Source: a virus
Direction: 5' to 3' (one strand)
IMG/VR virus record: IMGVR_UViG_3300045988_159706
Length of the DNA stretch: 64,000 nucleotides
The notes below the pieces were generated by a model. It ran no database searches and was not told where the DNA came from. It saw only the letters and a program-made list of their open reading frames with translations. This document shows positions 1 through 64,000 of this stretch, in pieces (position 1 is the first letter of the stretch; every line of letters starts with the position of its first letter). The translations under genes and the position numbers were made by a program.

Positions 1-314
1 TTCCGATTTTGCATAAACCTTGTTTCGAAGTAGATTATTATATAACTGCTCGGAATATTCCAGTTGAATGGATTGAAGAAAGTTTACAAAAGAATGGCCT
101 TCCATGTGCTCCAGTTCATGTTGTTCCTTGGGATCAAAGTAAATTGGCACATTTACGTGATTTAAAAATTGATATATTTATCGACGATAAATATGAAAAT
201 TATAAGGAAGCAACTGATGCTGGAATCTTTTGCTACTTAATGGATGCTCCTCATAATCAATATTATAATGTTGGTCATAGGAGAATTTATAACCTTGATA
301 TACCAATTAAATAG
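1..314 (+). CDS. 5'(3')-deoxyribonucleotidase-like HAD phosphatase, C-terminal part (5' end outside window)
   Basis: The frame is open to the window start. IFIDDKYENY and LMDAPHNQ resemble the C-terminal half of NT5C-type HAD nucleotidases. TAG stop at 312-314. Confidence 0.55.
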   Translation, partial: PILHKPCFEVDYYITARNIPVEWIEESLQKNGLPCAPVHVVPWDQSKLAHLRDLKIDIFIDDKYENYKEATDAGIFCYLMDAPHNQYYNVGHRRIYNLDIPIK

Positions 315-812
315 ATGGAAGAATTTTTATTAGACATCCTTGGGTGGGATCACTCTGAAGCAACCTGGTTGCTTAGGTTATTTACTAGATTTAATTCCAA
401 TGGGGATAGTTTTCCTCTTATGTGTGAAGCAGCTGAATTAGATCCTTCTGATTGTATTTGTAATGATCGAGTTGAACCAGAGACTCTAGAAACGATATTC
501 TTACGGAATTTATTTGCAAGGAAATTAGATAGAGAGGATTTTAGACTTTCTGATAACATTTTTACTGTTAAGGATATTATAGTAAAAACGAATCATGGTG
601 AGAATGTAGAAAATATATATGATGACTATTATTGTACATTGTCATTTACAGAACTTACTGTGATAAAGCCACTTATTTTAGAACTTGAAGAGTTTTATAC
701 TAAGGAACATTCAGAGATTACACATAAACAGACCAGTATTCCTGAAAGTTCTACTCCTATTGCAAAATCTATATTTGAAAGAATCTATGGAAGTAAGACT
801 AGCCGACGTTAA
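315..812 (+). CDS. hypothetical protein
   Basis: 165-aa ORF starting at an ATG directly after the upstream stop. TAA stop. No motif recognised. Confidence 0.5.
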   Translation: MEEFLLDILGWDHSEATWLLRLFTRFNSNGDSFPLMCEAAELDPSDCICNDRVEPETLETIFLRNLFARKLDREDFRLSDNIFTVKDIIVKTNHGENVENIYDDYYCTLSFTELTVIKPLILELEEFYTKEHSEITHKQTSIPESSTPIAKSIFERIYGSKTSRR

Positions 813-1824
813 ACTTACTCCATTACTACATACTGTTCAGAGATTAAAGATTTCTGACGAGGAGTATTTTTCAAGTAAATATAGAGAGTACATCTCTAAC
901 TCTAGGTTAAAATACATCAACCCTGACCAGGATGGTAGTCCTTCGAAGTATAAAAATGGTATACAACAAGAAACTACACGGTCATTGCAGTTAGGTTCAG
1001 CTATTCATGAGGTCTTTTTACAACCAGAATCCTTCTCATTAGAGGAGGATCTGGGAAGGCCTTCTGCTAAACTTGGTGATGTATGTGATTATATAATGAA
1101 GCAAAGAGCTGAAGGAAAGGGTATATATGACTCAATAATTTTAGCTTGTAATGAAGTTGGTTACTATGCAAATAGTTTAACAGCCAACAGAATCAAACAA
1201 ATTATCTCTAAAGGACTGTCATACTATATAAAAAGTAAGACAGTTGAAAATACAGATAAGATTATTTTATCAAGTAAGGATAGAGAAGTTTGCGTTAATT
1301 GTTTAAACTCTTTGAACTCACATAGTGGAGCAATGAAACTTATACGTCCAACTGATATATTTGGTGATGCTATTGCTTCTTATAATGAAGATGCAATTTT
1401 TATGGATGTCAAGTGTGAATATAATGGGAAGAGTACAATTCTCAAATTAAAGATGAAAGCAGACAACTGGACTATCGATGAGGATTCCAAAAAATTGGTT
1501 TTGAACGATCTCAAAACTACAGGAAAGCCAATAGGATTTTTCATGCAAGAGTATGGTTCATTTGTGCATTATCATTATGCTCGTCAGATGGGAATGTATA
1601 TGTGGATGCTGTTTCATCTATGTAAAAAGGAGTTTAACGTGGACAAAACCTGGAATATTTCGTCTAATATCATTGCTGTAGAAACAGTGGGTGAAAATAG
1701 AGCTGGAGTATTTAGAGTGTCCAAAAGTCAGCTTACTGCTGGCAAAAAAGAATTCCAACGTCTATTAAAGATGGTTGGTGTCTGCCAGATTGAAGGATTC
1801 GATGATAATATAAAATTTAGTTAA
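787..1824 (+). CDS. PD-(D/E)XK recombination exonuclease (RecE/YqaJ/Cas4-like fold)
   Basis: First ATG at 787; the track ORF from 685 uses an upstream alternative start. Motifs SNSRLKYI, SAIHE and MKADNW...LNDLKTTGK (D...D/E-x-K) are typical of phage PD-(D/E)XK exonucleases. All Trp codons are TGG. Confidence 0.6.
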   Translation: MEVRLADVKLTPLLHTVQRLKISDEEYFSSKYREYISNSRLKYINPDQDGSPSKYKNGIQQETTRSLQLGSAIHEVFLQPESFSLEEDLGRPSAKLGDVCDYIMKQRAEGKGIYDSIILACNEVGYYANSLTANRIKQIISKGLSYYIKSKTVENTDKIILSSKDREVCVNCLNSLNSHSGAMKLIRPTDIFGDAIASYNEDAIFMDVKCEYNGKSTILKLKMKADNWTIDEDSKKLVLNDLKTTGKPIGFFMQEYGSFVHYHYARQMGMYMWMLFHLCKKEFNVDKTWNISSNIIAVETVGENRAGVFRVSKSQLTAGKKEFQRLLKMVGVCQIEGFDDNIKFS

Positions 1825-2557: not shown

Positions 2558-2562
2558 GATTT

Positions 2563-3060
2563 ATGACAGTAGATATATTCAAACATCCACTATTCACATC
2601 TTGTGGATTCTTAGGAGTATGACCAGGAGATAGTTCCTCTTTTATTAATCAATTTCATTTAGGAGGAGAATATTGTGTTTATGTATTACTAGATTCATGA
2701 TGTAAACATGATACAACCCTTTGTGGATGATCCTTTCCCTACGCTATTAAATATATAGGAATGGGCCCTTACCCAGTAGGGTGAAGAAAAACAGGTAAGC
2801 GTCCACTAAATCATAAAAATGACTTATTTAGTGACCATCTTAAATTAGACCCAAATCGTTATATATTGACCTTTCCATCAACATGCCTAGACAAACAGTC
2901 TGCCTTTGATTTAGAATCAATATTAATAGATGCTGCATTGAAGGATTCCTATACATTGTCTCCTAGAGGTTTGAGAAATGTTAGAACTCCAGATTTTCAG
3001 TTAATAAACAAAATAAGGGGTCATAAGATTAATGGAAGTTACCTTAGACAAGCTGCTTAG
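2563..3060 (+). CDS. GIY-YIG domain nuclease-like protein (needs 4 TGA read as sense)
   Basis: From ATG 2563, four in-frame TGA codons join the reading frame to track ORF 2866-3060. EYCVYVLLDSW...PYAIKYIGMG...RKTGKRPLNH fits the GIY...YIG signature plus the downstream Arg/His. TAG stop. Confidence 0.55.
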
Positions 3061-3790
3061 TGGCAAATCAACACGAATTAATTCAAAAGATTTTCTTTCA
3101 ACAGAAGACTATGTAAAGCCTTTTATTGAAGAAATGAGTAAATTCACTTCTACTTATAGAATAGAAGCTATCCCTCCCTCTCAAGTTACTACAGATAAAG
3201 AAGGAGAGGATATTACCTATAACAGGGTATTAGTGCAGGCAATCATGCCTACTCAAATAGATGAGTATAATGAAATATATACTTTGGCATATTCTTTAGA
3301 CATAAGAAGGCCTATTTATAAAGTATATAAAGCGATGTTTAATAATACTACTAATTCAATAATTGCATTTGATCCAAATTGATTGGTAGTTAATGAAATT
3401 AAACCAGCAGAGACTTTTACACTTCCAATTCAAAACTTAATGAGTTTTACAAGTGACTTTGAAGTTAAACTCAAGAAATATAAAAACGATACTTTATCTA
3501 CCAAAGAAAACGATCGTTATGTAAGACTGGGTTCTTGGATTGAAAAATGTCAATTTGCAGTATGGCAAAATGACTTTGGAGGAAAGGTTAAATGGTCTCC
3601 AACAAATGTTGTTAAGGCTTATAATAACATTTATATAAATACATCAAGTGATTATTATGTTGGTGATAAGGACTCATCTGTAATTAATACATATAATTCA
3701 TTTGCACAGCTAATTGCAGATGATAAAAAAGATATTTGCAATAAGTTTGAGAAAACTATGCTAATTAATTCATTATTAGGATTAAAATAA
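3032..3790 (+). CDS. hypothetical protein (track ORFs 3032-3382 and 3383-3790 joined by TGA 3380-3382)
   Basis: Both fragments are in the same frame and directly adjacent (AFDPN-W-LVVNEIK). No motif recognised. Confidence 0.6.
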
Positions 3791-6033
3791 TGACAGTTGA
3801 ACAATGGTTAAATAATGACGAATTAGCTATTACTATCTGGAAGAATAAATATAGGTTTGAAGATGAATCACTAGACGATTGGTTCAAAAGAGTTTCTGGA
3901 GGTAATGAAATTGTAGAAGAACAGATCAGAGCTAAAAAATTTATTTTTGGAGGTAGAATCCTTGCTAATAGAGGGTTATCTGATAAAAATAGAAAAATAA
4001 CATATTCAAACTGTTATGTAGTTGCTCCTCCTGAAGATAATCTTGAATCTATTTTTGAGTGTGGGGCAAAGTTAGCAAGAACATTCAGCTACGGGGGAGG
4101 TTGTGGAATTGATATTTCTAATTTGAGACCTTCTGGAGCAAAAGTTAATAATGCTGCAAAAACTACTTCTGGAGCTGTAAGCTTTATGGATTTCTATTCA
4201 TATATTACTGGACTGATTGGTCAGAGTGGTCGTAGGGGAGCACTAATGATTTCTATTTCTTGTGATCATCCAGATCTTGAAGAGTTTATTGAGATTAAGT
4301 CTGACTTAGATAAAGTTACAAAAGCTAATATCTCTGTTAGAGTTAGTGACAAATTTATGGAAGCAGTTGTTAAAGGTGAAACTTTAATATTGAAATTCGT
4401 AACTGATACTGGTGAAACAATTACTAAAGAGGTAGAAGCATATCCTATTTTTAGAAAGCTTGCTCAAATGAATTGGGATTATGCCGAACCTGGTATATTG
4501 TTTTGGGATAGAATAACTAGCTGGAATTTATTATCAAATAATAAGGAATTTTCTTATGCAGGAGTAAATCCCTGTGCTGAAGAACCTCTGCCAGCTGGAG
4601 GGAGTTGTCTTCTTGGAAGCATAAACCTTGCAGAATTTGTTACAAAAGAAAGAAAACTTGACCTTAGTTCCTTAAGAGAAACTATTCAAGTTGCAGTTAT
4701 TGCTTTGAATGAAGTTCTTGATGAGGGTCTTCCTTTACATCCTTTACAAGAACAAAGGGATTCTGTAGCAGAGTGAAGGCAAATTGGCCTTGGTGTTATG
4801 GGTCTGGCTGACATGCTTATTAAATTAAGAGTTAAATATGGTAGTACTACTTCTAGATCCATTTTAGAGTCAATTGGACATGAATTAATTATGACTGCTC
4901 TAGAGACTTCTTCTATTTTAGCTGTCAACTGTGGACCATATCCTAAATTTAATCGTGATTACGTTATACGAACTCCTTTCTTTAAGAATTTAGATTCTGG
5001 GGATATGAATGACTTACGTTTCCAAAGTTTGCATGATGATATATGTAAGTATGGTTTACGCAATTCTCAATTACTTACTTGTGCCCCAACTGGCAGTATT
5101 GCAACTATGTTAGGAGTATCCACAGGTTGCGAACCAATTTTTGCAACTTCATATACACGTAAAACTGAATCATTGGTAAATGAGGAAAAGTATTATAAAG
5201 TATATACCCCAATTATAAAGAAGCTTATTGATGAAGGGTTTTCTGAAGAAACTTTACCCGAGTATGTAGTTACATCAGAACAGATTCCATATAGAGAAAG
5301 AATTAAAGTTCAAGCAACTTTACAGAAGTTTATTGATGCTTCTATTTCTTCTACCATAAATCTTCCAGAGTCAGCTACTATTGATGATGTAGAAACTATT
5401 TATAGATTAGCTTGGGAGGAAGGTTTAAAGGGTGTTACAGTTTATCGTTCTGGATGCAAAAGGGGTGCAGTCTTATCAAAGAATCCCGTAATTAAAGAAT
5501 GCCTAAAACGTCCTGAATCTGTTGAAGCTAAACTAATTAGATTTAAGAATGGTTCTGAAAATTGGATTGCATTTGTAGGTCTCATTGACGGAAGGCCTTA
5601 TGAAATCTTTACTGGAATTAATAACATTGAAGATTTCCCGATTCCTACCTCAATAACTGAAGGTGAAATTATCAAAGTAAAAGACTCATTAGGAAAGCGT
5701 TATGATTTTCAATATACTGATAAGTATGGATATACTAATCGTTTAGGAGGACTTTCTCGCATCTTTAATCAAGAATACTGGAATTATGCTAAATTAATAT
5801 CTGCTTTATTAAGAGGTGGTATTGAATTAGATAAGGTAGTTAAGATTATTGATGGAATGCATTTTGAGTCAGATACTCTAAATACTTGGAAGAATGGTGT
5901 AAAGCGTGCTATTAAAACTTTTATAGTTGATGGAGTTACTTCACATGAAGTTTGCCCAGATTGTGGTGAGCATTTGATATACGAAGGGGGATGTACTATA
6001 TGTAAAAATTGTGGGTTTAGTAAATGTGGATAG
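3790..6033 (+). CDS. nrdJ: class II (adenosylcobalamin-type) ribonucleotide reductase
   Basis: Track ORFs 3790-4776 and 4798-6033 share a frame, joined at TGA 4774-4776 (SVAE-W-RQIGLGVMGLADML). Motifs YSNCYV, GGGCGIDISNLRP, NPCAEEPLP and TCAPTGS. C-terminal zinc ribbon CPDCG...CTICKNCG. Confidence 0.85.
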
Positions 6034-6749: not shown

Positions 6750-7252
6750 TAAATATAAAGAAATTAGTTCCTGAAGCAGTAATACCTACCTATGCTAAGG
6801 AGGGTGATGCTGGAATGGATTTAGTTGCTACTTCAGTTGATCATAGTAATGAGCATTACATTGAATATGGAACTGGGTTAGCTGTTGAAATCCCTGAAGG
6901 CTATGTTGGTTTAATCTTTCCTAGAAGTTCTAATAGTAAAAAAGATTTGCAGCTTTGTAATTCAGTAGGTGTAATAGACTCTGGATATAGAGGAGAAATC
7001 AAATTACGTTATCGAAGAATTATTAACCCTACTCCCAAAAGAAATTTTGTAGTAACTGATGTAGAATTTCAAGAGGAATTAGAGAGTAAGGTACCTATAT
7101 TACGTATAAAGGCTGATTTTTCTTGCTATGGTGTTGGAGATAAAGTAGGACAAATTATAATTATGCCAATTCCATTAATTAGTTTTAATGAGGTTCAGAA
7201 ATTGTCTGAGACTGTTAGAGGCGATGGTGGATTTGGTTCAACAGGAAAATAA
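6743..7252 (+). CDS. dut: dUTP diphosphatase
   Basis: ATG 6743 lies within track ORF 6713-7252. Motifs AGMDL, PRSS, GVIDSGYRGEI, GDKVGQIII and C-terminal RGDGGFGSTG. There is an insertion between motifs 3 and 4. Confidence 0.8.
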   Translation: MLVNIKKLVPEAVIPTYAKEGDAGMDLVATSVDHSNEHYIEYGTGLAVEIPEGYVGLIFPRSSNSKKDLQLCNSVGVIDSGYRGEIKLRYRRIINPTPKRNFVVTDVEFQEELESKVPILRIKADFSCYGVGDKVGQIIIMPIPLISFNEVQKLSETVRGDGGFGSTGK

Positions 7253-8700
7253 TGACTACAAAAGAAATAACACAAACTCTACGAGATGATTTATTGCAAA
7301 CTATCTATAATCTACAGGATAAATTTCTTAATTTTGAACTTGGAGATGAACAAGCAGATGTATTAGTTTCAATCTTTACCTTTTTACGTAAGAAAGGGTT
7401 TGATGAGTTAGTTCTTTCTGGCCCTGGAGGAAGTGGAAAATCTGCTATAACCAAACTAATCGTTCTGTATCTTGAAAAACAATGTGTTCCTTACATTTTA
7501 GCAACTCCAACAAATAAAGCTTGTGGAGTACTTCATAATTATACAGAGCGTGACGTTATAACACTTCATAAACTTCTAACTTTAAAACCTACTATTGACA
7601 TAATTAATCTTGACTTTAAAGACCTTCAATGAAGTACTGATTCGATCTCTTCAGGCATTCCATTGAATGGGGTTTTGATTATTGATGAGTGTTCTATGAT
7701 TAACTCTGATTTATACGAGTTTATCAAAGAGAAAGCTAAGATTAGGCAATGTAAAGTAATTTATACTGGAGATGATAAACAGTTATATCCAGTTAAAGAA
7801 AAGAAACTATCTAAACCTTTTCAATGCAATCATCAATATTATTTAAGTAAAGTTTATAGACAACAGGAGAATAATCCTCTATTGGATATTTTAAACACAC
7901 TTAGAGATCATTCAATTAAACAATTTTATGAAATTCGTTCTCCTGAAGGTAATCTTGTAATATTCCATCATTGGAGAAAGTTTGTATCTTCTGCCTCACA
8001 CCTATTTAAAAAATCAGTAGATTTAGGTAATCCAGGGATTGTGAAATTACTTGCTTATACAAATAAGCGAGTAGAAGCCTTTAATCATATTCTTCGAGAT
8101 GCCATATTTCAGAATGAATCTGAATATAATGTTGGAGAAATTTTAATGGGTTATGATACTTGTAGTTACAAAGACAAACGAGTATTCAAATCTATGGAAT
8201 TTGAGATTATAAACTCTGCAGAATACATCGTGACGAATATAGTTCCTGGGCATTGTCAATTGGGGTATATTACATATAAAGGATATTATTTGACCCTTCG
8301 TCCAATTAACACAGAATATTCAGAGGATGAAATATTTATTATTTCAAGAGATACTAATGAGAAAGACTTAACTGCTTTAGCTGCATATATAGAACTAATG
8401 CGTTTAGATGCAATTCAAGCGCGTTCAAAAATAGTAGCATCAAAATTGTGGAAAGAGTATTTTCGAGTTATGGAATCTTTTACTACTCCTGTTGATTTGG
8501 TTTATGGAAATAGAACTGTAAGAAAGAAGACTCTTGATTATGGTTATTGTTTATCTGTTCATAAATCTCAGGGATCAAACTATGATAACATATTAATAGA
8601 TATGGGTAACTTGTTTACTTGTAAGAATAAAGAAGAGTTAAGACAGTTACAATATGTAGCTTTGTCACGAACTCGTAATAATATTAGTATGCTTATTTAA
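7252..8700 (+). CDS. SF1 DNA helicase (Dda/RecD/Pif1-like)
   Basis: Track ORFs 7252-7632 and 7663-8700 share a frame, joined by TGA 7630-7632. Walker A GPGGSGKS, Walker B LIIDECSM, then YTGDDKQL, SVHKSQGS and ALSRTR. Confidence 0.8.
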
Positions 8701-9867
8701 ATGCATGATATATTAATTTCTAGAGATTCTAGAGGAAAAATTAGAGTTGTAGATATTTCATATGAATGAAATGATACAACCCATAGTTTTTTAATTATTA
8801 GAAAAACATCTCAATGAGGAGGTAAAGTAACTAACCAACCAATCATTGAAGTTAAAAGAGGGAAGGCGCAACGTACAGCTGCAGAACAAGTTAAATTGGA
8901 GTATAACAGTAATGTTAAGAAATACCTTGATAAAGGTTATAAGAACATTCGTGATTTTAAAATAGAGTCATTAGATGATGTGGATGATCCAGGCAAATTA
9001 CTTGGGGATATAACTACTGATCAATCTGGTGCACCTAAGCCAATGTTAGCTAAAAGTTTTGATGGTGTAGCTACCTCAACATTTGAACATGAGTTTTATG
9101 GCTCAACAAAAATTGACGGAACACGATGCCTTATGCATTGAAATGGTTCCGAAGTAACTACATCCTCAAGAGGAGGAAACAACTATGATGTTGCTGCTAA
9201 TTATATTAGGAAAGATCCTAAAGTAATGAAGTGGCTTAAAGAACATCCTGACATATGACTGGATGGAGAATTATACGTACATGGATTACCTTTGTCTTAT
9301 ATCTCTGGTATTGTTAGACTTCAAACTTTGGATGAAAAACATAAACAGTTAAAGTATTATGTTTATGATTTAGCTATCCCTGATGTAAAATTTAAGGATA
9401 GATTAAAGATTTTAAAGGATTTTGAGAAAGCTGTTTCTGATTCTGACAAAATTGTAATGGTTAAACATGTAAAAGTATCTGGATGGCTAAATATGAAAGC
9501 TCTTCATGATCAATATGTTAATGATGGTTGGGAAGGTTTAGTAATTAGAAATCCTGATAAAGAATATAAGTTTGGAACACGAGACAATCGTATGATCAAA
9601 CTTAAAATGTTTGAAGATCATGAATATAAAATTCTAGATCTAGTAGATGGCCTCAGAGATGAGGATTTATGTTTCTTAATGGAAACTAAAGAAGGATATC
9701 AATTCAAGGCTAAGCCTATGGGAGATAGAGCTTTAAAACAATGATATCGTGATCACATTGAAGAATTAAAAGGTCAAATGGGTACTGTAAAACATTTTGG
9801 AATGACTAAAACAAATACTCCAGTACCTAATCTCCCTGTATTTAAAGCAGTTCGAAATTATGAATAA
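8701..9867 (+). CDS. ATP-dependent DNA ligase
   Basis: From ATG 8701, five in-frame TGA codons (8767, 8815, 9139, 9256, 9742) link three same-frame pieces. Motif I STKIDGTRC, motif III LDGELY, motif IV EGLVIR, motif V MIKLK. TAA at 9865-9867. Confidence 0.85.
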
Positions 9868-12191: not shown

Positions 12192-12330
12192 CTTTCTTTA
12201 TAGAAATTTTGAACAAGGGGTGTTCAGAGTTGATGAAGAAGGGTACGAATATGTGGATAAAAAATATATTAATTTATATGATTCATTGGTATCTAAAATT
12301 TGGGCAACCGAATCTCTAATATGGATTTAG
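12151..12330 (+). CDS. possible small protein (59 aa)
   Basis: ATG 12151 to TAG 12328-12330. It fills an otherwise uncalled gap and its stop overlaps the next ATG. Below the track length cutoff. Confidence 0.3.
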   Translation: MEINQLRVHERVINFLYRNFEQGVFRVDEEGYEYVDKKYINLYDSLVSKIWATESLIWI

Positions 12331-12746
12331 ATATTTATGTAGAGAAATTGTATCAGGCTTGAATTAAATATAAAGGAGTTAGAATTCTTGTAGACTATGA
12401 TGATACAATTAAACCGTATAATACAGCTTCTGAAGCTCTTTGTAAAGACATAATTAATACTTTAATTGAAGCCCAAGAACTAGGAGCTACGGTAGTTCTA
12501 TGGACCTGTAGATCTGGGACCCGTTTAAAGGAAGCTGTAAATTATTGTAAATCTGTAGGATTAGAATTTACTGATGTCAATCCTGTAGAACCTTTCTTAC
12601 CAGGGTATTCTATGAAAGCCTATGGTAATATACTACTTGATGATAAAGCTGGATTAGAACAAGCTTTAACTACATTAAAATTAGCATTATACAAATATAA
12701 AAAGTTCGTTTATGAAATTAACGAGAAGCAAAGATTGCAATCCTAA
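12321..12746 (+). CDS. small HAD-like protein (one in-frame TGA)
   Basis: The ORF runs from ATG 12321 to TAA 12744-12746 and needs one in-frame TGA read as sense (YQA-W-IKYKGV). ILVDYDDTI resembles HAD motif I (DxDxT). Confidence 0.5.
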
Positions 12747-14091: not shown

Positions 14092-14606
14092 TGAAGTCAT
14101 TTTCTAAAGAAGAAATTCAGACACTCAAAGAAAACAAGGAAGTTTTATATTTTTATAAGCTTCCTTGTTCTTTATTTGATTCTGGATTTCAATATATTAT
14201 TGTTACTGATGCTCCAGAACCTTCTGAAAAATATGATAATGTAAAATATCTTTCTTCTCAGTGTTGGTTTCAAAGAATGCAAAATGGGAGTTTACTCCCA
14301 ATAGTTTGCACATCACTTGGAAAATCCTATAAGATAAAAGAATATGTATCTGTCTATGTAAAGCCAGATATTATAAAGCTTAGAAAATTATTAGAAAACA
14401 GTTTATTAGGAGCTTGTAAATATTCTTGAAGTTTATCTGATGATGAAATTATACAAGAATCTTTATGGGGAATCCAAGTAATTAAAGAGGGAAGAGTGAA
14501 TAGAATTGATGTATTTAAATTAATTTATAAGGTGACTGAAGCTTTTAGTGAATTTTTAGAAGTATCTGCGCCGATGTATCGAATGTGGAGGGAGAATAAT
14601 GAGTAA
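14091..14606 (+). CDS. hypothetical protein (extended through TGA 14427-14429)
   Basis: Track ORF 14091-14429 continues in frame (KYS-W-SLSDDEI...) to TAA 14604-14606, overlapping the pnkp start. Confidence 0.6.
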
Positions 14607-15826: not shown

Positions 15827-15856
15827 ATGAGCCTATTCTATTATTTATTAGTTCTT

Positions 15857-52100: not shown

Positions 52101-53599
52101 AAACTATATCTTCCAGAAGGATCAAAATCATCCCAAATATAACCACCTAAAATTTTATCTGTTGGATCAATTCTTGAATAAAAAGCATTCCCTGTAGCTT
52201 CTCCATTATATCCTGCAGCCCTAATATATTTAGAAATATCAACAACATTCCCATTCTCATCTAACCCTATAGAAGAGATAGAAGTAGGTACTCCGAACTC
52301 ATTTCTAGGAGTATTATTATCAATAATATCCATTACTGTAACTCCTTGAGGAAGATTCTCATATAAAGGTGATGTGTAAGTATATAATACATTATCATCA
52401 TTTTTATATGTTTTATTGAAGTAGGGATTATATTGAAGTTGTGAATTATATCTCTTAAAAGGATTATTCGTTCACAATACTTGCCACTGTCCATTCTTAA
52501 CAGGATCAAATAAATTTTGACGCATCTTATTAAAAATGTCAACATTCGGAGAATTTAAAATTTGATTAATTTCTGATTCTGGATTAGCTCACTCATTTTT
52601 ACTATATAACCTGCCATTATAAAGGATATAGTCTTTGAATCTTTTTAATTCTGGGTGAATATTAACAAAGTTTTCTCCGAAATATGCATTTCTTCAATCC
52701 TTTCCGTAACCTTCTAGTCCAAATCCTTCAGTTAATAGTTCTCCTTTTGGCCCATAGGAAATTTTAAATTGATTTCTAAAATCAGTAGTAAAGTTATTAT
52801 CTTTATCCCATTTATCCTGATTTGACTGAGCACCGCCTTCTTCAGAGGTTTTTGAAGTATTAGTTTTATCAAGAATACCTAATTTAGATAATGTATTAAT
52901 ATCACTATCTGTAATACTTCCATCTTTAATTCTCTGATATAAACCATCCCAATCTGTGTATTCTTTAACGAACCTTGAATACACATCTTTAGTTTGATTA
53001 TTATACCCTTTCCAGTCTACAATATTTTCCTCTTTTTCAAGATTTCTTAAAAAGTCTAATCTATCAAAAATGCTTGTATTATCAGTGTCAGTATTATATA
53101 TTCTTCTCCCGTTATCATCAAGTACTAAGTTTCCATCCTTATCTCTTTTATATGAAAGAAATAATTTTCTAGAAACATCGACACTTTTATTTTTATTCGC
53201 TTGTGGAGTAACTTGGTTATAATTAAACCCACGTAAAGCGTTTGTTGCACTTTTAACTTGATTTACTCTTCCATTAAAAGTACTATCTAATGCTTCTCCA
53301 GTTTTTGAGGTACGTCTTGCAGCACGTCTTCTTTGGCGGGCATTCATGTTGTCAAACGTTACATCTCCTCTTAACTCGTTAGTATTAGAATCATATGATA
53401 AATCGGCACCAGATCTAAGAGCATTAACAATAGCTCCATAATCAGCTCTAGCTCTATCATCTGTGATTGAACTACCGTGTGCCGCCATAGCCTGTAGAAA
53501 GTCGTCGTCAACTTGATATGTCACACCATCCTTAGTAAAGTTGCCGTATTTTTTTACAGCTCCTCCACCCTGGAGTTTTTGTATATTTACCTGTGCCAT
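49142..53599 (-). CDS. large virion-module protein (about 1485 aa) with glycine-zipper/hydrophobic and Q-rich coiled-coil segments
   Basis: ATG 53599. Track ORFs 52694-53599, 52019-52333, 51716-51931, 50681-51637 and 49142-50656 are all in one frame. Gaps were translated and are open apart from TGA. TAA at 49142-49144. Confidence 0.7.
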
Positions 53600-54152: not shown

Positions 54153-54932
54153 TTACCTATACTTTCATATATAATTTTTATAGGGTTTCTGATTATGAAT
54201 TGCATGACAAATAGTTCCTGAATTATAATTATATTTTCTTGTTATATCCATTAAACAATCAAAACTTTCAATTAAAATTCCATCCAGACTGTATTTGTCT
54301 ACAATTTTTGATCTTTTATTTTCTTTGCCATATTTCCTTGAAATCTTTTTCTTTGAAGGGCAATACTTGCCAGGGTAGGTATCTTTAGCTCTTCACTGAA
54401 AGCCTTTAGAAGTTCCTTTATTGTTTATTACACAATAAATTATTTGGGATGCATCACATCCAGTTTCTCGTTCTGCTTGAGCAGCACTGGAATATTCTTT
54501 AATAAAATTTCCTTCTAAGTCAAATTGCCATACAGTTCTAGATACACTTTGTTTTAATTTAAGTTTATGCCTCTCTGATAACTTTCTGCCATAAGAAGGA
54601 TGAGTGGATCCACTTCCTGGTGTAGACCCTCCTATTGTACAATTATACCCTTCATAATAACTATTATATTGCCCAATATAGTATATTTCCATGTTGTCAA
54701 GAATCTTATGTACTTCATTAACATCATCAGAAATGATTGTATATAAAATTTCATAGTTGAAACTATCAAATCCATACTTTCGTATAGCTACGTAAAACGG
54801 CAAATAATAATATTTACTATTTATATGACTACTATTATACTTATGTTGAAGCTTCCTTTTATGCTCATTTATTGTTTGTCCAATATAAGACTTGCCTGAT
54901 GGGGAAGTGTATTTATAAATTACACCTTTCAT
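54153..54932 (-). CDS. free-standing GIY-YIG homing-endonuclease-like protein
   Basis: GVIYKYT...SYIGQT...RKLQH. The frame continues through TGA 54393 (GFQ-W-RAKD) and TGA 54165 (NYI-W-KYR) to TAA 54153-54155. Confidence 0.75.
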
Positions 54933-54935: not shown

Positions 54936-55553
54936 TTAGTCTTTATCTGGCAAAGAAGTATATTCAGGTTCGCGGGTATCTTGTTTAGATAGTACTCCAA
55001 ACATATACTTACCTAATTTTTTGTAATCACTATCTTTTTTAGATTTACTAGCTTTCTTAGCTTTACGGATTAGTTCTCGTGTCTCTTTTCTACTAACAAT
55101 TCGTTCTCCCCCAACTAAATCCATTTGAGGTTTTCCATCAGATCCAAGAATATACATTTTATCAATATCCTCTTCACTAATATCCTCTTCATCATCCTCA
55201 AAATCTAAGTCATCTCCAATCTGAATACCAGAATTAGCATTAACTTCAAGTACATACTTAGTTCTCCCATCTTCTTCATCAGGAGTAGAGGTAATTAAGT
55301 CAGAACTGTGAGCTTTACCTAATACAACATTATAAACTTCATCATCTTGATCTATGAAGACTAGATCAATATCGAATTCCATTTCCTCTGTATTAAATAC
55401 AACCTGACCCTGATCTTCAGGCATAACAAATAGCATACCTTCATCATCATCCATAGATTCTACATTAGATAGACCTTGAGTTCTTTCCTCTTCTGTTTCT
55501 GCAACTAAGACTTTATATTTCTTATCTGCTATTTCAATTATTATCTCTTTCAT
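54936..55553 (-). CDS. DUF192-like domain protein with acidic linker and basic tail
   Basis: VLVAETEEERTQGLSNVESMDDDEGMLFVMPE...FNTEEMEFDIDLVFID follows the DUF192 pattern (A.T..er..GLm....l....GMLF ... pLDi.F.d). Confidence 0.5.
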   Translation of the reverse strand: MKEIIIEIADKKYKVLVAETEEERTQGLSNVESMDDDEGMLFVMPEDQGQVVFNTEEMEFDIDLVFIDQDDEVYNVVLGKAHSSDLITSTPDEEDGRTKYVLEVNANSGIQIGDDLDFEDDEEDISEEDIDKMYILGSDGKPQMDLVGGERIVSRKETRELIRKAKKASKSKKDSDYKKLGKYMFGVLSKQDTREPEYTSLPDKD

Positions 55554-56996
55554 TATTTTGCTGCTTTGTTAAAAATTTCAATAATATCTAAATTTGGTTG
55601 CATACCTCCAAATAAATTTTCTTTGCTACGATTTGAAGTTAATCGATCTAAAAGAATATTAGTTGCTTCTTTAGCTCTTTCTTCTAATTTAGGATATAGT
55701 GCTTTTTGCTCAAATTTAGGAAGGCTGCTAAATTTTTCGAATCCATGAGATAATGTTGGAGAACTACTTCAATGCCGTTCATGTACATTTGGATCAATTC
55801 TAAATTGTATATCTGGACTTAATTTGAATAAGTTATTTCTTGATTTTAACACAAAGTTAGGATCATAATATATATTACTAGAATTTTTAGTTAACTCTTG
55901 CAATTCAGCAATATTAGAAGTATCATCAATAATCTGAGGATTTATATGAGTTTTAATTTTATTTCCTCTAAGTCTTTGTATTCTTTCTAATCATTTATAC
56001 CCGTTCTTAGTAGGTAATACTGCCTCCTTACTGATTATATTATCTCATTCTAATGCAGGATTTTTTGAATTATTTATAGAAATTAATTTTGCCTGTAACC
56101 CATTTTTTAAGCTATTTTCATAAATATTAGAATCTGTAGTAATAACTTTAGCTGTTCTTGGTAATTTAAATTTACCATCTAAAGATAGAAAAAACGTATC
56201 CATTGGTTCTATTGAACTAGGATATATATTAGCTTTTTCTGCATCTTTAAATGGCAAGATAACTGTAGTAGTATTATCAGTTCAGTCTCCTCATGAATGC
56301 GGTCTAACACTGACTCCTGTTGTAAAGTGTGTTGTATTAGGTATACTAGAAGTTGTAGGTAAATTTGGTCCATCATTAAAATCAATATAATTTGTTCTAT
56401 GTATCAAGCTCATGTTTCTTGCATTATTTATTGCTTTAGCTGTATTAATAGATCTTCTCACTAAATTAATTCCACCTCCAATATCTAACATATCTCCGAT
56501 TCCTGATAAAATCGCTTTTCTATAATTTCCCGCCTTAGCTTCTCTATAAGTTTTCTGCACACCGTTATTACTAATTGAGTTTCTAACCCCATCAGCAGTT
56601 AATCCAACATCAACTCCTGTTCGAATTCATTTAGGTAATTGACTATATAATCAAGATGCACCTTTTCCTGCTGCTGAAATAGATGGAGCAGCTAAAGCAC
56701 CTGCTCCTATCACTGCAGGAATATACATAGCCTTATTTAATCCTTCATATCCTCGTCTCTGCCTAGCCGCATCCTCTCCTACTTTTCCTAACAACTCTCT
56801 AGCTTCTTCATTTCCCCTATTTGCAGAAGATGTTAATGTAGAAATGTGTTCTCTATATTTACTAGGATTAGTTTCTTTTAAATCGTTAATTCTTGTCTCT
56901 AAAGATGTAGTTGGCTTTGGAGGAGTATACAGCTCTGGATTTTTTATTGATATTATCCAGAGCTGTAACAACTTGTGATCTTATATCTAATGGCAT
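55553..56996 (-). CDS. virion-module protein (about 470 aa), start or frame unresolved
   Basis: Track ORFs 56651-56971, 56291-56560 and 56045-56257 plus the tail to TAA 55553-55555 are in one frame, joined by TGA. That frame has only a TTG (56971) as a start. The well-placed ATG 56996 is in a different frame. Confidence 0.6.
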
Positions 56997-56997: not shown

Positions 56998-58206
56998 TTA
57001 CTCTATACTTTTAATTAAACCACTTCTATCATCAGTATTTTTCAATAATTCATAACAGATAAGTTTACCAGCCTCTATAGCAACATCATCAGACGAATCT
57101 TCTTGATATTGTTTATATAGACTCTCTAATTTATCGGTAAACTCTTTACGAAAGATAACTTCTTCCTTTTCAATTTCTGCTTGCTGAATTACTCCTCCTT
57201 CTCCCTGAGCAACAACTGGAATACCTTTGCTGGTAATTTGTCCTTCTAATTCAGGATTTACTTTTTCTAGATTGTGTTTCCTAGCATGTAAAGCTCCTTC
57301 TGGTATTAGATTCATTTTTCCTCCAAGTTGAAACTTCTGAGGATCTTCTGTAGGTTTAACTTTTCAGGAATTAATAAGACTTCTAGCCGTATCTAATTCT
57401 GGAAATTTCATTCCTTTTTTAGATAATAGTAATTGTGGAGTGTATCCAGCATATTTATTTTGATTTTGTGATAAATAAGTATCACCAGCACTATTAGATT
57501 TTCTAAGTTTACTTTCTAAACTAATATCAGTTATTAGATTATTAACTCTATTTTGCTCTCTAATAAACTTATTAGCTTTACCAGTTCCTAACATTCTCTT
57601 ACCACTTAATGCTTGAGCGGCATTAATATCTGCAACTGATCCTCCATAGGCATTTGTCATTTGATCAATTTCTGCAGATTTATAAGACTTCGCAGTTCTA
57701 CCTCCAAACATACCCACAAGCATGGATACACCAGGAAGACTATTAATAAAACCTTGAGTGGCAGCTTTACCACCAATACCTGCTCTTTTTGCAGCGTCTG
57801 CATCAATATTATCTAAATTTAATCCTGTTGCAGAACCGATTGCATCTACTACTCCTGAAGCAGCTCCAATAATAGCTCCAATAGGGCCCACAGAGCTGAT
57901 TGCACTGCGGATGCCCTCTCTTGTTGAAGCTTGTTCTTGAGTTAGTCCTGAAGTAGATAATCCTCCAAGCATGGAACTTGCTGCCCCTAAACCTGCTTGT
58001 AATCCTCCAGACATTCCCATTTTATTACCAGTAGATGCAACATTAGCTGCACTCTTGGCACTTTTTTGAACTGCTTTAGTAGATTCTTTAGATGGTCCAG
58101 AAGCCGCTAGTTTCATTTTATCTAAAGGGCTTTTTAAAGTTCCAGAAGGGTTAAATCCTGTAGGTATACTTGAGCCTGATGACGCTTTTACTATTTTATT
58201 ATGCAT
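56998..58206 (-). CDS. virion-module protein (about 402 aa) with a glycine-zipper region
   Basis: Track ORFs 57364-58206 and 56998-57315 share a frame, joined by TGA 57364 (LINS-W-KVKPTEDPQKFQLGGKM). TAA at 56998-57000. Confidence 0.7.
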
Positions 58207-61200
58207 AACTTAACCGTAATAATAATTGAATAGCATTAATTACTACTAGTTTCTCACCAGTATATTTAATTCTAATTTTAATCCATTTGTCTCTGATTCT
58301 TGTACTTTTTAATTCAGTAGAATTGTCAGTACCTACAATTCTATCTTTATAATATATAGGAGTAATTGTAGTAAACCATCGATCTTCTTTGTATTCAATA
58401 TTACCAAGTCTTCTGCCATAAGTTTTTATATTTTTAATTGGCTGTTTAACTTTTAGTATATACTGATTCAGAACATGGTCTTTCTCAATTTCTACCTGTT
58501 GCTTATCAAAAATTTGAGAGTATTTACCGTCCTTTGCAGTTGCCTTTTCTAAATCTAATTTCTTCTTAGCATACCCTACACTATCGAAATTTCCATCAAT
58601 ATCCCAAAATTTATCTGAATTAGCATGCTCTGATTTATAAAGACCTGCTTTATTAAAATCATACACATCTCCGATAATTTCAAATTCCAAAGTTTCTGGT
58701 TCTACATTATTAGAAATCATAACAAGATTATCAAAGATCTTATGAACTCCAGCTGGAGTATTTACAACAAATTCAAACTCAAAAGGCTCTTGTTTATTGT
58801 ACCATTTAGTTGGAAGGATTTCATTATCAGGATTTCCATCAAAGTAATTAATCTCATTAAAGATGCCTGCTCTGCCATGAACATAAAAACCATTTCTTAA
58901 AAGCTTTTCATAAGCTTCTTGAGATTCCTTAGGAAGTTCAGTAATATCTCGTATTAGTACTATAGATTCCTCTATTGTATTACTTAGAGCTTTAACTTTA
59001 TTTTCCCCATCCTGTTCTGAAATATTTTCCTCATTTACATAAGGATTATCAGTATTTTCTAGTTCTGTATTAATAAATGGAGTAACCTCAAAATTAATTT
59101 TTAAATATAATAATTTATCAACTTCTTCAAAACTATTTACTATAAGCTTAAGATTTTTTCCATCCTGAGTTATTCCTATTTTCTTCTGACTGAAATCCTG
59201 GTCATAATCTCCAACTAAATACTGTGAGAAACTTAAATCCTGAGCATTACTAATTTTGCATTTAATGTCATATTTAGGGTCTTCTGGTTTATCTGTGAAT
59301 CTAACTGTATGTTCCACATCGTTTTCATCTAAAACAGATGAAGTAATAGATGTAATTCTAACATTAAATTTATCAAAGAATTCATAACCTTTCATTACAA
59401 TAGTTCTTGTAATGTCACCATACTCCCAAAGATTTCCACAAGTTCTATTAAAGCCCGCTCTATCTTCAATATGAGGGCCAGATTCAGTATTTATGTTATC
59501 ATAAATAATACCATAAATAGAAGCCCTTTTTCTATCTAAAGATAAGAAGATATTATTAATATTCTCAGAAGCAAGAGGAGTTCAACTATACTTAGTTATC
59601 CATTTTTCAAGTCTCTCATTGTAGCATAAATTCCAAACTTTATCCCCATTATAGAAAGTAAACATAACATCACCTTTATAATTGTTAAAGTGTGTTTTTA
59701 CATTCTTTAAAGAGATAATAGGATACTTATCGCTTTCTTGTAAAATAATATTGTCATGTAAGAATCTTTGAACAGACATATCAGAAATTATCTGAAATCC
59801 ATTTGCATTATATCTCCAAATCTTTTTAGCATAGGTATCTACACCATAAATTCCATTTGGAGTACGTATAATAGATTCTTGCCAAATACTTCCATAGTCT
59901 GGAGATATAGGAGTTACTTGATTTTGCAGTACTCCAGATCCATACATATGAATAGCTTGACCTGTACTTGTTGCAATTAATGCTTTTTCATTAATAGGAA
60001 TAATAGCACAACCATGTTCAAATACACAGAAAAGATTTGCACCTAATGAAAGTAATTTAACAATTGCTCCATATTGACGTTCAATATCCTTATATGATAA
60101 TCCTTGGAATATTCTATATGCATTTCTAAAGTCATCTTCAATCTGTACATTACTAAACATAACTCTAGTATCAAAGATGTCTTTTACATAAGGAACATTT
60201 GGCTGAGTAAAGTATTTCTTAAATGGTAATGAAGTTGAGTATCCTGCATTTAGCAATTGTGATTCAGGAATCTTATTTACTGGAGCAACAGTCATTCCTT
60301 GTAAAGGATAAAAGCTTCTTGCATTTCCCATCAAAGCCATTTCCTCTACATTTTGTCTATTTTCTGAACGCAATCCAAGATTATAATTAGAAAGACATTT
60401 ATATGTAAACCACTGCCCCATAGGAACAGTATTAATATCAGCTCTATTGATATCCTTCCAATCTTCAGTAGATGTTTGACTATATCCCTTATAGCCATCT
60501 TTCCATGTATTTGGATTAACAATCATATCATTAGTAGGAACCTCAGAATCAATAAAGTTAGTGTTGATTCTGATTGTTACTGTAGCTGTGAAACAATCCC
60601 CTCTGAATACTGTTGGAACTACTTGGGCAAATAGTTTGTCAGTAATGTTATACGAAGTTACAGTTTTTATATCATCAACTATTTCTTCTTTAGTAGAATA
60701 ATCATCATCAATATGTTCTTCACAGTATTCTGTAATTTTAGATTTTTCTACCCATTTATTTTCTTCAAGTTGATAAGTTGTTATATACTTTTCTACTCAA
60801 TGTATTTCTACTACTTCTTTAGTTTCAGAATCTAATACTGTTTTTGGTTTTAGCTCTTTATCACTAATCTCATATCTTGGACTAATTGCCATAAATGGGG
60901 ATAAATCGTTTCCTCTAATCTTGAAATACTGCGTTTCATATGCTTGAGAGTAATTATTTACTCGTATTGTGTAAATAGTATTATCCTTTAAATCCTGATT
61001 AGTTCCTACAAAAGGACAGTAAACCCCTCTAACAATGTTATTATTGTTTTTCTCATAGTTTTTGCTTGAGAAGAATCTAAAATCCTTTGCGTCCTCTGAG
61101 GAACCCGCTCGTGTAGAAAAACCATAATCATCTACATATTTTAGAGGAATATCAGTTGGAATATAAATTAATTTACTTTGGGTATTAAGTATAGTTTTAT

Positions 61201-63010
61201 TCCAGTTAGATTCTCCTTCAGGAACCCCTATTTGATAAGTTCTTTCAAATGAAGATGTATGGGCTAATTCAAAATCAAATTCTTTAGTAAGTAAGAATTC
61301 TGAGTTATCTAACATTGACTGAATTTGAGGATTAACCATAGCATCAACACAAAGTAACCCTGAAGATTGTTTAGAACCTGTTTTAATTATTCTATCTTTA
61401 TAAGAAGTGGAAAGTACTCTTTTACTATTAATAAAAGACTCTGTAAAATACATTCCATCTTGATATTTTTCATCATTTAGTTTCTGATCAAATAACATTG
61501 GAATATATGATACTTTATCAACTCCTATAGAATACCCTTGAGCAATAACATTAGGAATTCTCTTTTGTCTAACAAAGAAAAATCCTTTTACTTTATATTT
61601 AGATAATTCTGTAATTAAATCAGAATTTAATGTGAACTTAAGACCAATAGGTTCTGTAGCTTCTTTACCCTTTTCATGATTCTGAATATTAATTCTTGGA
61701 AATTTAAATACTCCTTTAGTATTAGCTAAAAAACTACTTCCTGCTAAGAAAAAATCTTCTTTACTAATAACATTAACTTCTCCCGTTTCCCTATCTTTAT
61801 ATAACTCTGTAAAGCTATTGTTAGCATTTTCAGAAGTTCCATATTTAAAATTAGTTAAGTGATTCCTATCAGTGTCAAATGGAATGTCGTAGTCTTCAAT
61901 AGTAAATTTGCAGCCCCTTAAATTATAAACAGGGGAAATGGAATCATCTAAAAAAATATAAACAATTCCGATTCTATATAATTCCTCTGGCCAATATCCT
62001 AAAGAATAGTATATAGAAACTGGATTATAGTATTCAATTTTTCCTACATTATCTAAATTAGTCTTTCTGGTATAAGAATCAGGTCTAACATACCCAATAT
62101 CTTTACCTTTGGTGCATTCAGCTTCTATGAAGTAGGAGATATTTTGCAAATCATCATTAGCTACTACTGTCTGTTGAACATTTCCAAAGAAGAGCATATT
62201 TTGTACTTGAGCTTGAGTTTTTACTCCAGTACAAATATTATATTTTATATTTAACTCTTCTTCATTTATTGCTAATGTTTCTTCAAACCCATCTAAGGTT
62301 AGCAGTAGAGAAGAGCCCACAATTTTGTAAGGCTCTTTTACTTGAAAAGTCTCAGTTTTTAATATTCCATTTAAATCAGAATATTCTCGTCTTACATAAA
62401 CAAATACTTTAGCAAATGAGGTATCAATATTATTAATCTGCAGATTAATAGCTTTATCTGTCCTTTCATCCTCTAATGTTCCAGATATAGAATATATTTT
62501 TTCTAAAGTCCCTTTAAATACACTAATTATTCCTGATTCAGCAACGACATCTGTTTTATTATAATCATTATCAGCTAACTTTAAATAAATAGTATAATTT
62601 CCTCCTTTTAATTGCCCATGATGCGCAATATTTAAAAGTTCTATTTTAGGAATTTTGTTTATATTTCTAAATAATCTGGTCTGAGCATCCATCAAACCTT
62701 CTTTGTATAAGTTTGTTTGCTCAGTTTGGTTTCTAAGTATTCGTCTATACTTATTATCCTCAATCACAGAATATGTTGTGTTTATAATTCTGGGGGGATT
62801 CAAATCATCGTTAATAATTAAATTAACGGTACCATCATAAGAGGGCTGGCACTCTATATCCACTGGTTTATTTAAATCAAACTGAAGTTCATCAGTTTCG
62901 AAGTCTTCTATAACTCCTCCTTTAGTTAATTTATTATGTAGTGGATTATATTCATGTGCCAGATCCCCTTCTGATTTATATTTTTTAACGGTTAGTTTTA
63001 TTTTCCCCAT
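58199..63010 (-). CDS. large virion/tail-associated protein (about 1603 aa)
   Basis: ATG 63010. Track ORFs 60797-63010, 59582-60526 and 58199-59395 share one frame. Both gaps were translated and are open apart from TGA. TAA at 58199-58201. Confidence 0.75.
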
Positions 63011-64000
63011 TATTTGTTATATTTAATTCACGTTTTTTAAATTCTGGCGAAGGTACTAATATACTACTAACATTATTTCATATAATGGCATTTCCCCAAT
63101 CAATTCCTCTAACAAATCCACTTCTAGTTTCATTATTTTTTCTGCTAAACCAAACTGCTTCTGGAAAATTAGCATAATAGAAATTTCCTCTATCATTATT
63201 GTATTCAAACCTTAATGAGTTTCCTATAAATTTTACAAAATCAATATTTACTGTTGTGGATTCTAAATCACAATAAACTTTATTTTCTGAATAGTTTCGA
63301 GTTGCTAATCAATTATTTATCTCTTTTTGTAATAAAGCATTTAATTGTGAAATAAATGATGTAAAAGTTGTAGAGTACATTGGTGCATTAACTGCATCTA
63401 TATATTGATAATTATTTGTTTTTGAAGAAATAGTAACATGTGCAAAAGTTCCATTACTCAAGTTTGTAGTACTATAAAACTTAGGATTTATATTTATACT
63501 AGAAAATAATTGATCTAAATTAAGATTAGAAAGATCCTTTTTAATATTTATCCCTTTATAAAAAATAGAATTCAAAGTATCTGTTCTTTTATAATTTACG
63601 GTAAACAAATTTTCAGAATATACCCTTATGTTTGAATCTGTGTGTTTTAGAAAATTCTTATAATCTATATGTAAATCATAAACACCGTATAATTGTATTC
63701 CTAATCCAAATAATAATGCACCAACACATTGATGCATATATTGATTTCCTGTATACTCATCATTAACTTTAAAAATATCTGCTGCGGATATTTTATTTGA
63801 AGCTACTAACCATTTAGATTCCTTATTAACTTTATTGTTTACTCCAAATCTATCGTTTATTCCAGTAAATGCTCCTTTAAAAGAAGTTAACTCAACTGGC
63901 ATAAAATTTATTACAGCTACAGTTTTAGAACCTCCTACAGAAGCTTTACAAATAATTCCAATTCCACTACAAAAATTTCCTTTTCCAGAAGTACAATCTG
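62985..64000 (-). CDS. virion-module protein, partial (5' end probably outside window)
   Basis: The frame of track ORF 63309-63902 is open upstream to the window edge. It continues downstream through two TGA codons for about 105 more codons to TAA 62985-62987. Confidence 0.6.

Follow-up and report, generated by a model that had tools for sequence, protein, structure and literature searches.

Reading of UGA as tryptophan in a 64-kb segment of a human-gut crAss-like phage genome, and a candidate UCA suppressor tRNA gene in its relatives

When the genes of a phage break at TGA codons under the standard bacterial code (translation table 11), is TGA a sense codon and, if so, which amino acid does it specify and what decodes it? 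The question is raised by a 64-kb stretch of viral DNA, IMG/VR record IMGVR_UViG_3300045988_159706 (the window, positions 1–64,000; 31.6% GC), which forms part of a phage genome of approximately 165–175 kb. A sequence-only reading had proposed that TGA encodes tryptophan (Trp, W) across the whole window while TAA and TAG remain stops, and that gene calling under alternative codes and alignment of residues opposite TGA would bear on the proposal. The analysis reported here supports the amino acid assignment, qualifies its extent, and points to a candidate suppressor tRNA gene in the genomes of close relatives.

Genes were called with the same greedy procedure under table 11, with TGA as sense, and with TAG as sense. 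Table 11 gave 85 open reading frames (ORFs) with a coding density of 79.4% and a mean length of 200 amino acids (aa), while reading TGA as sense gave 50 genes with a density of 96.1%, a mean of 412 aa and a maximum of 2,552 aa; the two codes are thus clearly separated by re-calling. No comparable effect was obtained with TAG as sense (85 ORFs, 80.2% density, mean 202 aa), which brought no gain in stop-to-stop ORF size in the window. The longest stop-to-stop ORF under table 11 comprised 1,368 codons; with TGA as sense, the largest reached 2,553, 2,501, 1,614, 1,605 and 1,489 codons. A run of 2,552 codons devoid of TAA and TAG at 31.6% GC is not due to chance. As had been claimed, fragments interrupted by TGA always resumed in the same frame with no intervening TAA or TAG. 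The 50 genes contain 83 in-frame TGA and 157 TGG codons, with at least one TGA in 25 genes, and end in TAA (45 genes) or TAG (5 genes). Seven junctions display a one-base TAATG overlap and none an ATGA overlap. Earlier statements on gene ends and on the concurrent use of TGG for tryptophan are borne out by these counts.

To identify the encoded residue, TGA was masked as X in searches, thereby avoiding bias toward any amino acid. The standard-code comparison genome was MT835470.1 (GenBank), a distant relative of 117 kb and 36% GC from human faeces. MT835470 was taken to use the standard code because giant ORFs of 2,970 and 2,281 codons remain whole under table 11 and 26 of its 114 genes end in TGA. 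Opposite 33 window TGA sites, MT835470 displayed W at 9, tyrosine (Y) at 4, phenylalanine (F) at 3, serine (S) at 1, and neither glycine (G) nor cysteine (C) at any. A similar profile was seen opposite 75 window TGG sites, 6 of them gaps (W 26, Y 10, F 7, G 0, C 1), and the share of W opposite TGA (9/33) did not differ from that opposite TGG (26/69; Fisher p = 0.37). Relative to a background of about 1.3%, nine W in 33 sites is highly improbable (binomial p = 3e-10), and W was the best fit by BLOSUM62 log-likelihood, with deficits of 12.6 nats (Y), 17 (F), 37.5 (S), 39 (C) and 45.6 (G) for the other residues compared. Window TGA sites matched by W in MT835470 include 8767 in the ligase gene, 16752 and 17292 in the DNA polymerase (PolA) gene, 59582 in gene g49, and four sites in gene g38.

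Closer, similarly recoded relatives yielded the same answer. Among g38 orthologues from nine IMG/VR contigs, TGA changes were solely between TGA and TGG, in seven columns; this comparison leaves aside L002, whose alignment columns were shifted by one. Recoded relatives covered 66 window TGA sites, of which 61 were again TGA in relatives from other samples. TGG was the alternative codon at 26 of the 66 sites, Tyr/Phe codons at 8, a GGN codon at 1, and Cys codons at none. Conversely, opposite the TGA codons of relatives, the window carries TGG 48 times and other codons 15 times. Exchange of TGA with GGN occurred at one site in each direction, and exchange with Cys codons never. Known proteins add two points of reference: T4 I-TevI has W opposite TGA 22436 of gene g33, within the motif REKY-TGA-IDKLNP, and the Psychromonas ligase 4d05 has W opposite TGA-147 of the window ligase (site 9139). 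Homologues of solved structure were otherwise uninformative, as the TGA sites of the ribonucleotide reductase NrdJ, PolA and most of the ligase fall at non-conserved positions (S/F, Q/V, V/A). Finally, Trp content is normal (1.0–1.4%) only with TGA counted as Trp. Collectively, these alignments and codon exchanges, which include four comparisons independent of one another, make it almost certain that UGA is translated as tryptophan beside UGG, with UAA and UAG terminating every gene, in agreement with the sequence-only reading.

Other readings of TGA were weighed against the same data. Glycine, assigned to TGA by translation table 25 in Absconditabacteria/Gracilibacteria and their phages, would produce an ORF structure identical to that of table 4 (TGA = Trp), and human-associated phages of the table 25 type exist (PMC10746230). 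We rejected this reading as exceedingly unlikely, given Gly at 0 of 33 aligned sites, a likelihood 45.6 nats behind W, and GGN at 1 of 66 sites versus TGG at 26. Translation as selenocysteine (Sec), Cys or Ser finds encouragement in a tRNA-like gene of the relatives, described below, that ARAGORN labels tRNA-SeC(tca) and whose long variable arm in the fold and G73 resemble Ser/Sec-type tRNAs. It is nonetheless very improbable: of the 33 aligned TGA sites none has Cys and 1 has Ser, log-likelihoods are 37–39 nats below W, the spread of the 83 sites over 25 unrelated genes is unlike a SECIS-type pattern, and the gene has no match to the Rfam tRNA-Sec model. A Sec or Cys reading was rejected on the additional ground that no exchange between TGA and TGY occurs among relatives. 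The remaining possibility is that the TGAs are real stops, reflecting fragmented pseudogenes, assembly errors or low-level regulatory read-through. Table 11 does still give many ORFs of at least 100 aa, yet we consider this explanation hardly credible in view of the recurrence of TGA at 61 of 66 sites in independent samples, the unfailing continuation of fragments in frame for up to 2,552 codons, homology that crosses the TGAs, and the essential nature of affected genes (PolA, ligase, helicase).

Gene identities were derived from Pfam/PDB matches spanning the TGAs. The two modules, defined by TAA/TAG-only gene calls, and the genes carrying TGA are as follows.

1–25872, plus strand: replication and nucleotide-metabolism module
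25924–63998, minus strand: giant virion/late genes
2563–3060, plus: g05, 165 aa, no assigned function; 4 TGA (2620, 2698, 2728, 2782), 0 TGG
3032–3790, plus: g06, 252 aa; 1 TGA (3380)
3790–6033, plus: g07, class II (B12-dependent) ribonucleotide reductase NrdJ; 1 TGA (4774)
7252–8700, plus: g12, SF1 helicase (AAA_30, UvrD_C_2); 1 TGA (7630)
8701–9867, plus: g13, ATP-dependent DNA ligase; 5 TGA (8767, 8815, 9139, 9256, 9742)
12321–12746, plus: g18, 141 aa; 1 TGA (12360)
14091–14606, plus: g20, 171 aa; 1 TGA (14427)
15827–16491, plus: g23, g24 and g25, three small genes; 6 TGA (15884, 16127, 16161, 16233, 16278, 16444)
16491–18482, plus: g26, family A DNA polymerase with 3'-5' exonuclease; 3 TGA (16752, 17196, 17292)
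20566–21687, plus: g32, metallopeptidase/VWA-like protein (DUF2201); 3 TGA (20671, 20722, 21007)
22172–22918, plus: g33, GIY-YIG homing endonuclease; 2 TGA (22436, 22673)
23965–25017, plus: g35, 350 aa; 1 TGA (24040)
25007–25723, plus: g36, dNMP kinase (DNMK); 2 TGA (25103, 25382)
25924–30744, minus: g38, 1,606 aa; 11 TGA
30744–32123, minus: g39, 459 aa; 2 TGA (31473, 30900)
32128–39786, minus: g40, 2,552 aa; 10 TGA
39790–47262, minus: g41, 2,490 aa; 9 TGA
49142–53599, minus: g43, 1,485 aa; 6 TGA
54153–54932, minus: g45, GIY-YIG-like endonuclease with NUMOD1 domain; 2 TGA (54393, 54165)
55553–56728, minus: g47, 391 aa; 7 TGA, 0 TGG
56998–58206, minus: g48, 402 aa; 1 TGA (57364)
58199–63010, minus: g49, 1,603 aa; 2 TGA (60797, 59582)
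62985–63998, minus: g50, C-terminal 337 aa of a 1,238-aa protein; 2 TGA (63309, 63078)

The motifs that had been read across TGA from the letters alone are present in the ligase (KIDGTRCLMH-TGA-NGSEV, PDI-TGA-LDGELY), in NrdJ (SVAE-TGA-RQIGLGVMG) and in the GIY-YIG endonucleases (GYQ-TGA-SY and NYI-TGA-KY in addition to the REKY site), and the identities proposed for the ATP-dependent ligase, class II ribonucleotide reductase, SF1 helicase, VWA protein and dNMP kinase hold. PolA was also correctly named, though its three TGAs divide it into four pieces rather than three. The full-length orthologue of the truncated g50 (L010:7301–11014) contains 16 TGA and 8 TGG. By eye, a DYDVD (DxDxD) motif was seen in g40 at 34624–34638 on the minus strand; from its sequence, g40 may be a crAss-type virion RNA polymerase, and we list it as a candidate.

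Relatives were traced for approximately 45 kb beyond the window, a distance over which neither TerL nor portal was met in the recoded clade. Megablast of window positions 1–25000 against GenBank phages revealed no close annotated genome, with short matches only, which involved thyX of cr111_1 and group I introns from Staphylococcus and Lactococcus phages. Many relatives sharing 82–100% protein identity are present in IMG/VR, most of them derived from a single human-associated dataset. Contig 3300045988_158902 (154 kb) is the nearest; it is about 97.8% identical to both window ends, and its early region is, over 7.4 kb, about 96% identical to OHFV01000001.1 (165,097 bp). The published entry for OHFV01000001 reads "TGA|w, zeta, zeta_14" and counts 18 tRNAs, none of them with a suppressor anticodon (Yutin et al. 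2021, Supplementary Data 1, PMC7886860). Membership in zeta_14 is consequently a two-step link, from the window to contig 158902 and from there to OHFV01000001. Several further observations concern this placement. The exact window PNK protein occurs in 513 blocks of a public assembly collection, where gene calls on PNK-bearing contigs already read through TGA (e.g., PolA of 663 aa); an exact look-up of the g02 protein gave no match. Contigs with exact window proteins reach 169–173 kb, consistent with the 145–192 kb of zeta_14 genomes, and the intron and homing-endonuclease content of zeta_14 recurs in the window as two group I introns and GIY-YIG genes. On a public contig with the exact g46 protein, a 1,603-aa gene at the position of g49 matches Pfam crAss_MUZ (muzzle protein), and TerL of the standard-code relative MT835470 matches Crassvirales TerLs at 23–33% identity. 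On these sequence relationships, the window is part of the genome of a human-gut Zeta crAss-like phage of subgroup zeta_14. Because TGA-to-Trp recoding has been published for the cluster to which the window belongs, the recoding itself is already known.

How UGA comes to be read as tryptophan is a separate issue, to which the pattern of its use is relevant. TGA is employed on both strands and in both modules, which upholds the claim of recoding across the whole window; uniform use does not follow, as 25 of the 50 genes lack TGA and usage differs among genes (chi-square p = 2.5e-4). Every Trp is specified by TGA in g05, g24 (16137–16307) and g47 (TGA/TGG 4/0, 3/0 and 7/0, respectively), while g21 (0/7) and g49 (2/15) make little or no use of it. 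Among Trp codons, TGA makes up a fraction of 0.26 in the window's replication module, 0.40 in the late module, and 0.14 in the early tRNA/auxiliary region of the nearest relative, where much of it resides in homing-endonuclease genes. Just past the right end of the window, the capsid block of a relative (L010:256–5617), comprising the major capsid protein gene and four neighbouring genes, has 0 TGA and 11 TGG and adjoins the TGA-rich g50 orthologue. Strong Shine-Dalgarno motifs precede 3 of 48 genes. The recoded clade has a GC content of 28–33%, versus 36–39% for standard-code relatives, and same-family sister phages use the standard code.

The nearest relative also has, at L164:1–10300 in its early region, a block almost devoid of TGA. 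By eye, it encodes, among others, NAMPT-like (495 aa) and NAD-synthetase-like (265 aa) proteins suggestive of NAD salvage and a vWA/TROVE-like protein (564 aa), interspersed with a set of tRNA genes that differs between relatives.

Uneven TGA use, few Shine-Dalgarno motifs, and standard-code sisters of higher GC content fit suppression driven by the phage in a standard-code host, a model already in the literature. The host would thus use the standard code and would probably be of Bacteroidales type, which we propose because the genes lack Shine-Dalgarno sequences, as expected for Bacteroidota phages. The largely TGA-free early region would be translated first; the phage would then supply an opal-suppressor tRNA-Trp(UCA), and replication and late genes would be read through. 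We regard this combination, a zeta_14 phage with UGA read as Trp via a phage-supplied suppressor tRNA(UCA) in a standard-code host, as very probable. The earlier description of the code as an AT-driven, code-4-type reassignment is supported insofar as the recoded clade is AT-richer. Uneven TGA use and the literature point to phage-driven suppression instead of a lineage-wide code of the Mollicutes kind.

Whole or partial phage genomes of the clade (L181, which is CAVAGP010000001.1 of 154,249 bp, and L178–L180) were found binned in metagenome-assembled genomes (MAGs) bearing four inconsistent taxon labels: Faecalibacillus, Lactobacillus johnsonii, Oscillospiraceae and Ca. Scybalousia. Host assignment from these bins was rejected, as we take the inconsistent taxa for binning artefacts. 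Such binning may lie behind published Firmicutes host predictions for opal-recoded Zeta phages.

The sequence-only reading had suggested looking beyond the window for a tRNA with a UCA anticodon. Upstream of the replication module, relatives carry tRNA arrays that vary, and in the closest relatives a UCA tRNA-like element of 91 nucleotides (nt) and 61.5% GC resides approximately 24 kb upstream of the window start, at a fixed place adjoining an HNH endonuclease gene. Positions of the gene, including its longer form in L177, are:

L162:15833–15923
L160:13376–13466
L177:17620–17713
also in L198 and L201 (OHFV01000001)

The minimum-free-energy fold of the 91-nt element is a cloverleaf with a 7-bp acceptor stem and G73 discriminator; a D-arm with 4-bp stem and 3-nt loop, without G18-G19; an anticodon arm with 6-bp stem and CUUCAAA loop containing the UCA anticodon; a variable arm of about 20 nt; and a 5-bp T-stem closed by the non-canonical T-loop AUCGUUA. 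Four sequence variants were found. One converts G-C to A-U in the anticodon stem, and another, from a genome about 74% identical over approximately 1 kb, has two compensatory D-stem changes and an altered T-loop. In the 91-nt variants, all of 26 pairs (100%) stay paired; 3 compensatory changes were counted and no disruption. The most divergent relative, L177, has at this position a 94-nt orthologue that is a bona fide Rfam tRNA (57.3 bits). This orthologue combines A1-U72 and G73 with a canonical T-loop, resembles tRNA-Trp in its D-arm and anticodon arm, and shares the long variable arm of the 91-nt element. When it is added to the alignment, pairing is 100% at the 19 pairs in common, 7 of which show a compensatory change; slid controls reach 46–54%.

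The element is present in 13 IMG/VR contigs of the group and in 16 human-gut metagenome contigs of 165–175 kb, OHFV01000001 among them. An exact search of 185,579 GTDB genomes with its 3' part gave 0 matches, and an exact search of IMG/VR with the anticodon arm returned, besides the clade, three matches to unrelated GC-rich contigs that are attributed to chance. Among the more than 200 loci examined, no further UCA tRNA was encountered. We give the 91-nt RNA, a candidate known from relatives' genomes, an even chance of being the suppressor. The broader proposal, that the missing opal suppressor of zeta_14 and related Zeta phages is a structurally aberrant RNA derived from tRNA-Trp, is a shade more tentative and falls just short of even. 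Such a suppressor would have been overlooked because standard detectors miss or mislabel the element, which lacks an Rfam match and is called tRNA-SeC by ARAGORN.

A second tRNA-like gene of the relatives, 81 nt long with a CUA (amber) anticodon and called tRNA-Pyl by ARAGORN, was observed at L169:307–387, L172:655–735 and L173:588–668. Relatives carrying this gene are TGA-recoded and give no sign of TAG read-through.

Several observations weigh against suppression by a phage tRNA in general and by the 91-nt RNA in particular. No tRNA was found in the 64-kb window, and early genes do carry a few TGAs. The base following TGA shows no bias relative to that following TGG (p = 0.83), a result that is silent on competition with release factor 2 (RF2). 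The 91-nt element does not match the Rfam tRNA (RF00005) or tRNA-Sec models at E ≤ 1, and its fold energy does not surpass that of shuffled sequences (z = -0.73), so support for it comes from covariation and not from energy. By textbook identity rules, a long variable arm and G73 favour seryl-tRNA synthetase rather than tryptophanyl-tRNA synthetase (TrpRS). Moreover, about 7 of 20 relatives with equal TGA use did not show the element in those of their regions that were sampled.

The last of these points, together with the failure of the Rfam tRNA model to detect the element, lends weight to the alternative that UGA is read as Trp independently of the 91-nt RNA, by a canonical suppressor tRNA encoded elsewhere in the genome, by host tRNA-Trp aided by phage modification of the tRNA or of RF2, or by an unknown factor. 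Some relatives encode a tRNA-Trp(CCA), and a suppressor tRNA is detected in just 35% of code-4 phages (10.1101/2021.08.26.457843). Compensation in the D-stem and anticodon stem, with conservation of the element in a genome of about 74% identity over approximately 1 kb, argues for a selected, folded UCA RNA, and the survey of more than 200 loci offered no other UCA tRNA; we therefore hold independence from the 91-nt RNA to be a serious alternative, albeit somewhat doubtful. Less is to be said for a host that itself uses code 4, a Mollicutes-like or other UGA=Trp bacterium whose code the phage would mirror with no suppression needed. The AT-rich genome, the presence of TGA in replication genes and not just in late genes, a window free of tRNAs, and the binning of clade members in low-GC Firmicutes MAGs such as Faecalibacillus all speak for such a host, although a MAG bin holding a 154-kb low-GC phage contig constitutes weak host evidence. 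In phages of recoded hosts, about 90% of genes have in-frame TGA (10.1101/2021.08.26.457843). Here only half do, with the early region and capsid block nearly TGA-free. Genes without Shine-Dalgarno motifs, same-family sisters that use the standard code or TAG recoding, and relatives that carry their own tRNA(UCA) likewise argue against a code-4 host, which we judge quite unlikely. Phage-driven suppression in a standard-code host remains the preferred explanation. Release-factor genes have a bearing here as well: none was noticed in flanks read by eye, where no systematic hidden Markov model search was made.

Introns are a further feature of the window. A group I intron lies within thyX at 19409–19778 on the plus strand (Rfam RF00028, 74 bits), between exon 1 (approximately 18966–19408) and exon 2 (approximately 19786–20265). 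Gene call g30, a minus-strand ORF at 19711–19938 that sits within thyX exon 2, was rejected as spurious. A second group I intron core at 22897–23137 on the plus strand (62 bits) emerged only from a scan limited to a short region. The intron splits an AAA-ATPase gene (exon 1 ORF 21611–22102; exon 2 23172–23963), and its 3' end is 86–96% identical to introns of Staphylococcus and Clostridium phages. The GIY-YIG ORF g33 is positioned just 5' of the second intron core and overlaps its 5' end, and the homing endonuclease gene g45 is free-standing between virion genes g44 and g46.

For annotation, the choice of code has considerable consequences. Table 11 breaks the window into 85 fragments and loses the giant virion proteins, PolA and ligase, among others, while table 4 restores a normal, dense phage genome. 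The recoding is one more confirmed instance and not a new phenomenon, since earlier work reports it both in this cluster (Yutin 2021) and in gut phages generally (Borges et al.). A possible addition to published knowledge is the non-canonical tRNA-like gene with a UCA anticodon that has covariation support and is situated outside the window; it represents a concrete and testable candidate for the suppressor that surveys list as undetected. If functional, the element would explain why many TGA-recoded phages appear to be without suppressor tRNAs and would display an unusual tRNA architecture for bacterial translation.

Of known systems, translation table 4, as used by Mollicutes and some endosymbionts, is a code of cells that holds for the whole genome and is associated with loss of RF2. 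The window's phage resembles it in reading UGA as Trp, in the retention of UAA and UAG as stops, in an AT-rich genome and, going by its relatives, in a candidate tRNA with a UCA anticodon, and differs in being a virus with uneven, module-dependent TGA use and most likely a standard-code host. Stop recoding of late genes in gut phages is likewise seen in the crAss-like and Lak phages that reassign TAG to Gln (code 15; Peters et al. 2022, PMC9523058); no other phage recoding has been validated by metaproteomics. Both codon and amino acid are different there, and TAG as sense brings no gain in the window. In general, TGA or TAG recoding occurs mostly in late genes, with code switches over short phylogenetic distances (PMC7886860, PMC12386605, 10.1101/2021.08.26.457843). 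The Jade, Sapphire and Agate clades share with the phage described here partial recoding and close relatives of standard code; in them, structural and lysis genes use the alternative code, with replication genes variable (10.1101/2021.08.26.457843). They are other phage lineages, and Jade encodes a module of suppressor tRNA, TrpRS and release factor 1; here no such module was seen in the regions examined, in which no systematic search was made.

Closer still are Lera phage ("Echekvirus") and other Zeta phages (PMC12386605, 2025), for which TGA=Trp was similarly deduced from homologues. The published Zeta genome table lists members with polA, 30–33% GC and "opal" genomes of about 176 kb without a detectable suppressor tRNA (PMC12386605), and a CUA tRNA without amber recoding occurs in Lera and other Zeta phages as it does in the relatives studied here. 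TGA in Lera and other Zeta phages is found mainly in structural genes (PMC12386605), whereas many replication genes of the window contain it too; and where Lera has a canonical tRNA-Sup-TCA detected by tRNAscan-SE, the UCA gene reported here is highly divergent and was found in relatives only. The closest system is zeta_14 itself (Yutin et al. 2021, Nat Commun, PMC7886860; OHFV01000001, QRFC01000022), which is the same cluster with an identical code. The window's phage and zeta_14 have in common the TGA|w assignment, genomes of 165–175 kb, the human gut, group I introns and homing endonucleases, and variable tRNA arrays with no Sup tRNA recorded. To this description the present analysis adds the 91-nt non-canonical UCA gene, present in OHFV01000001 and unrecorded there as a suppressor.

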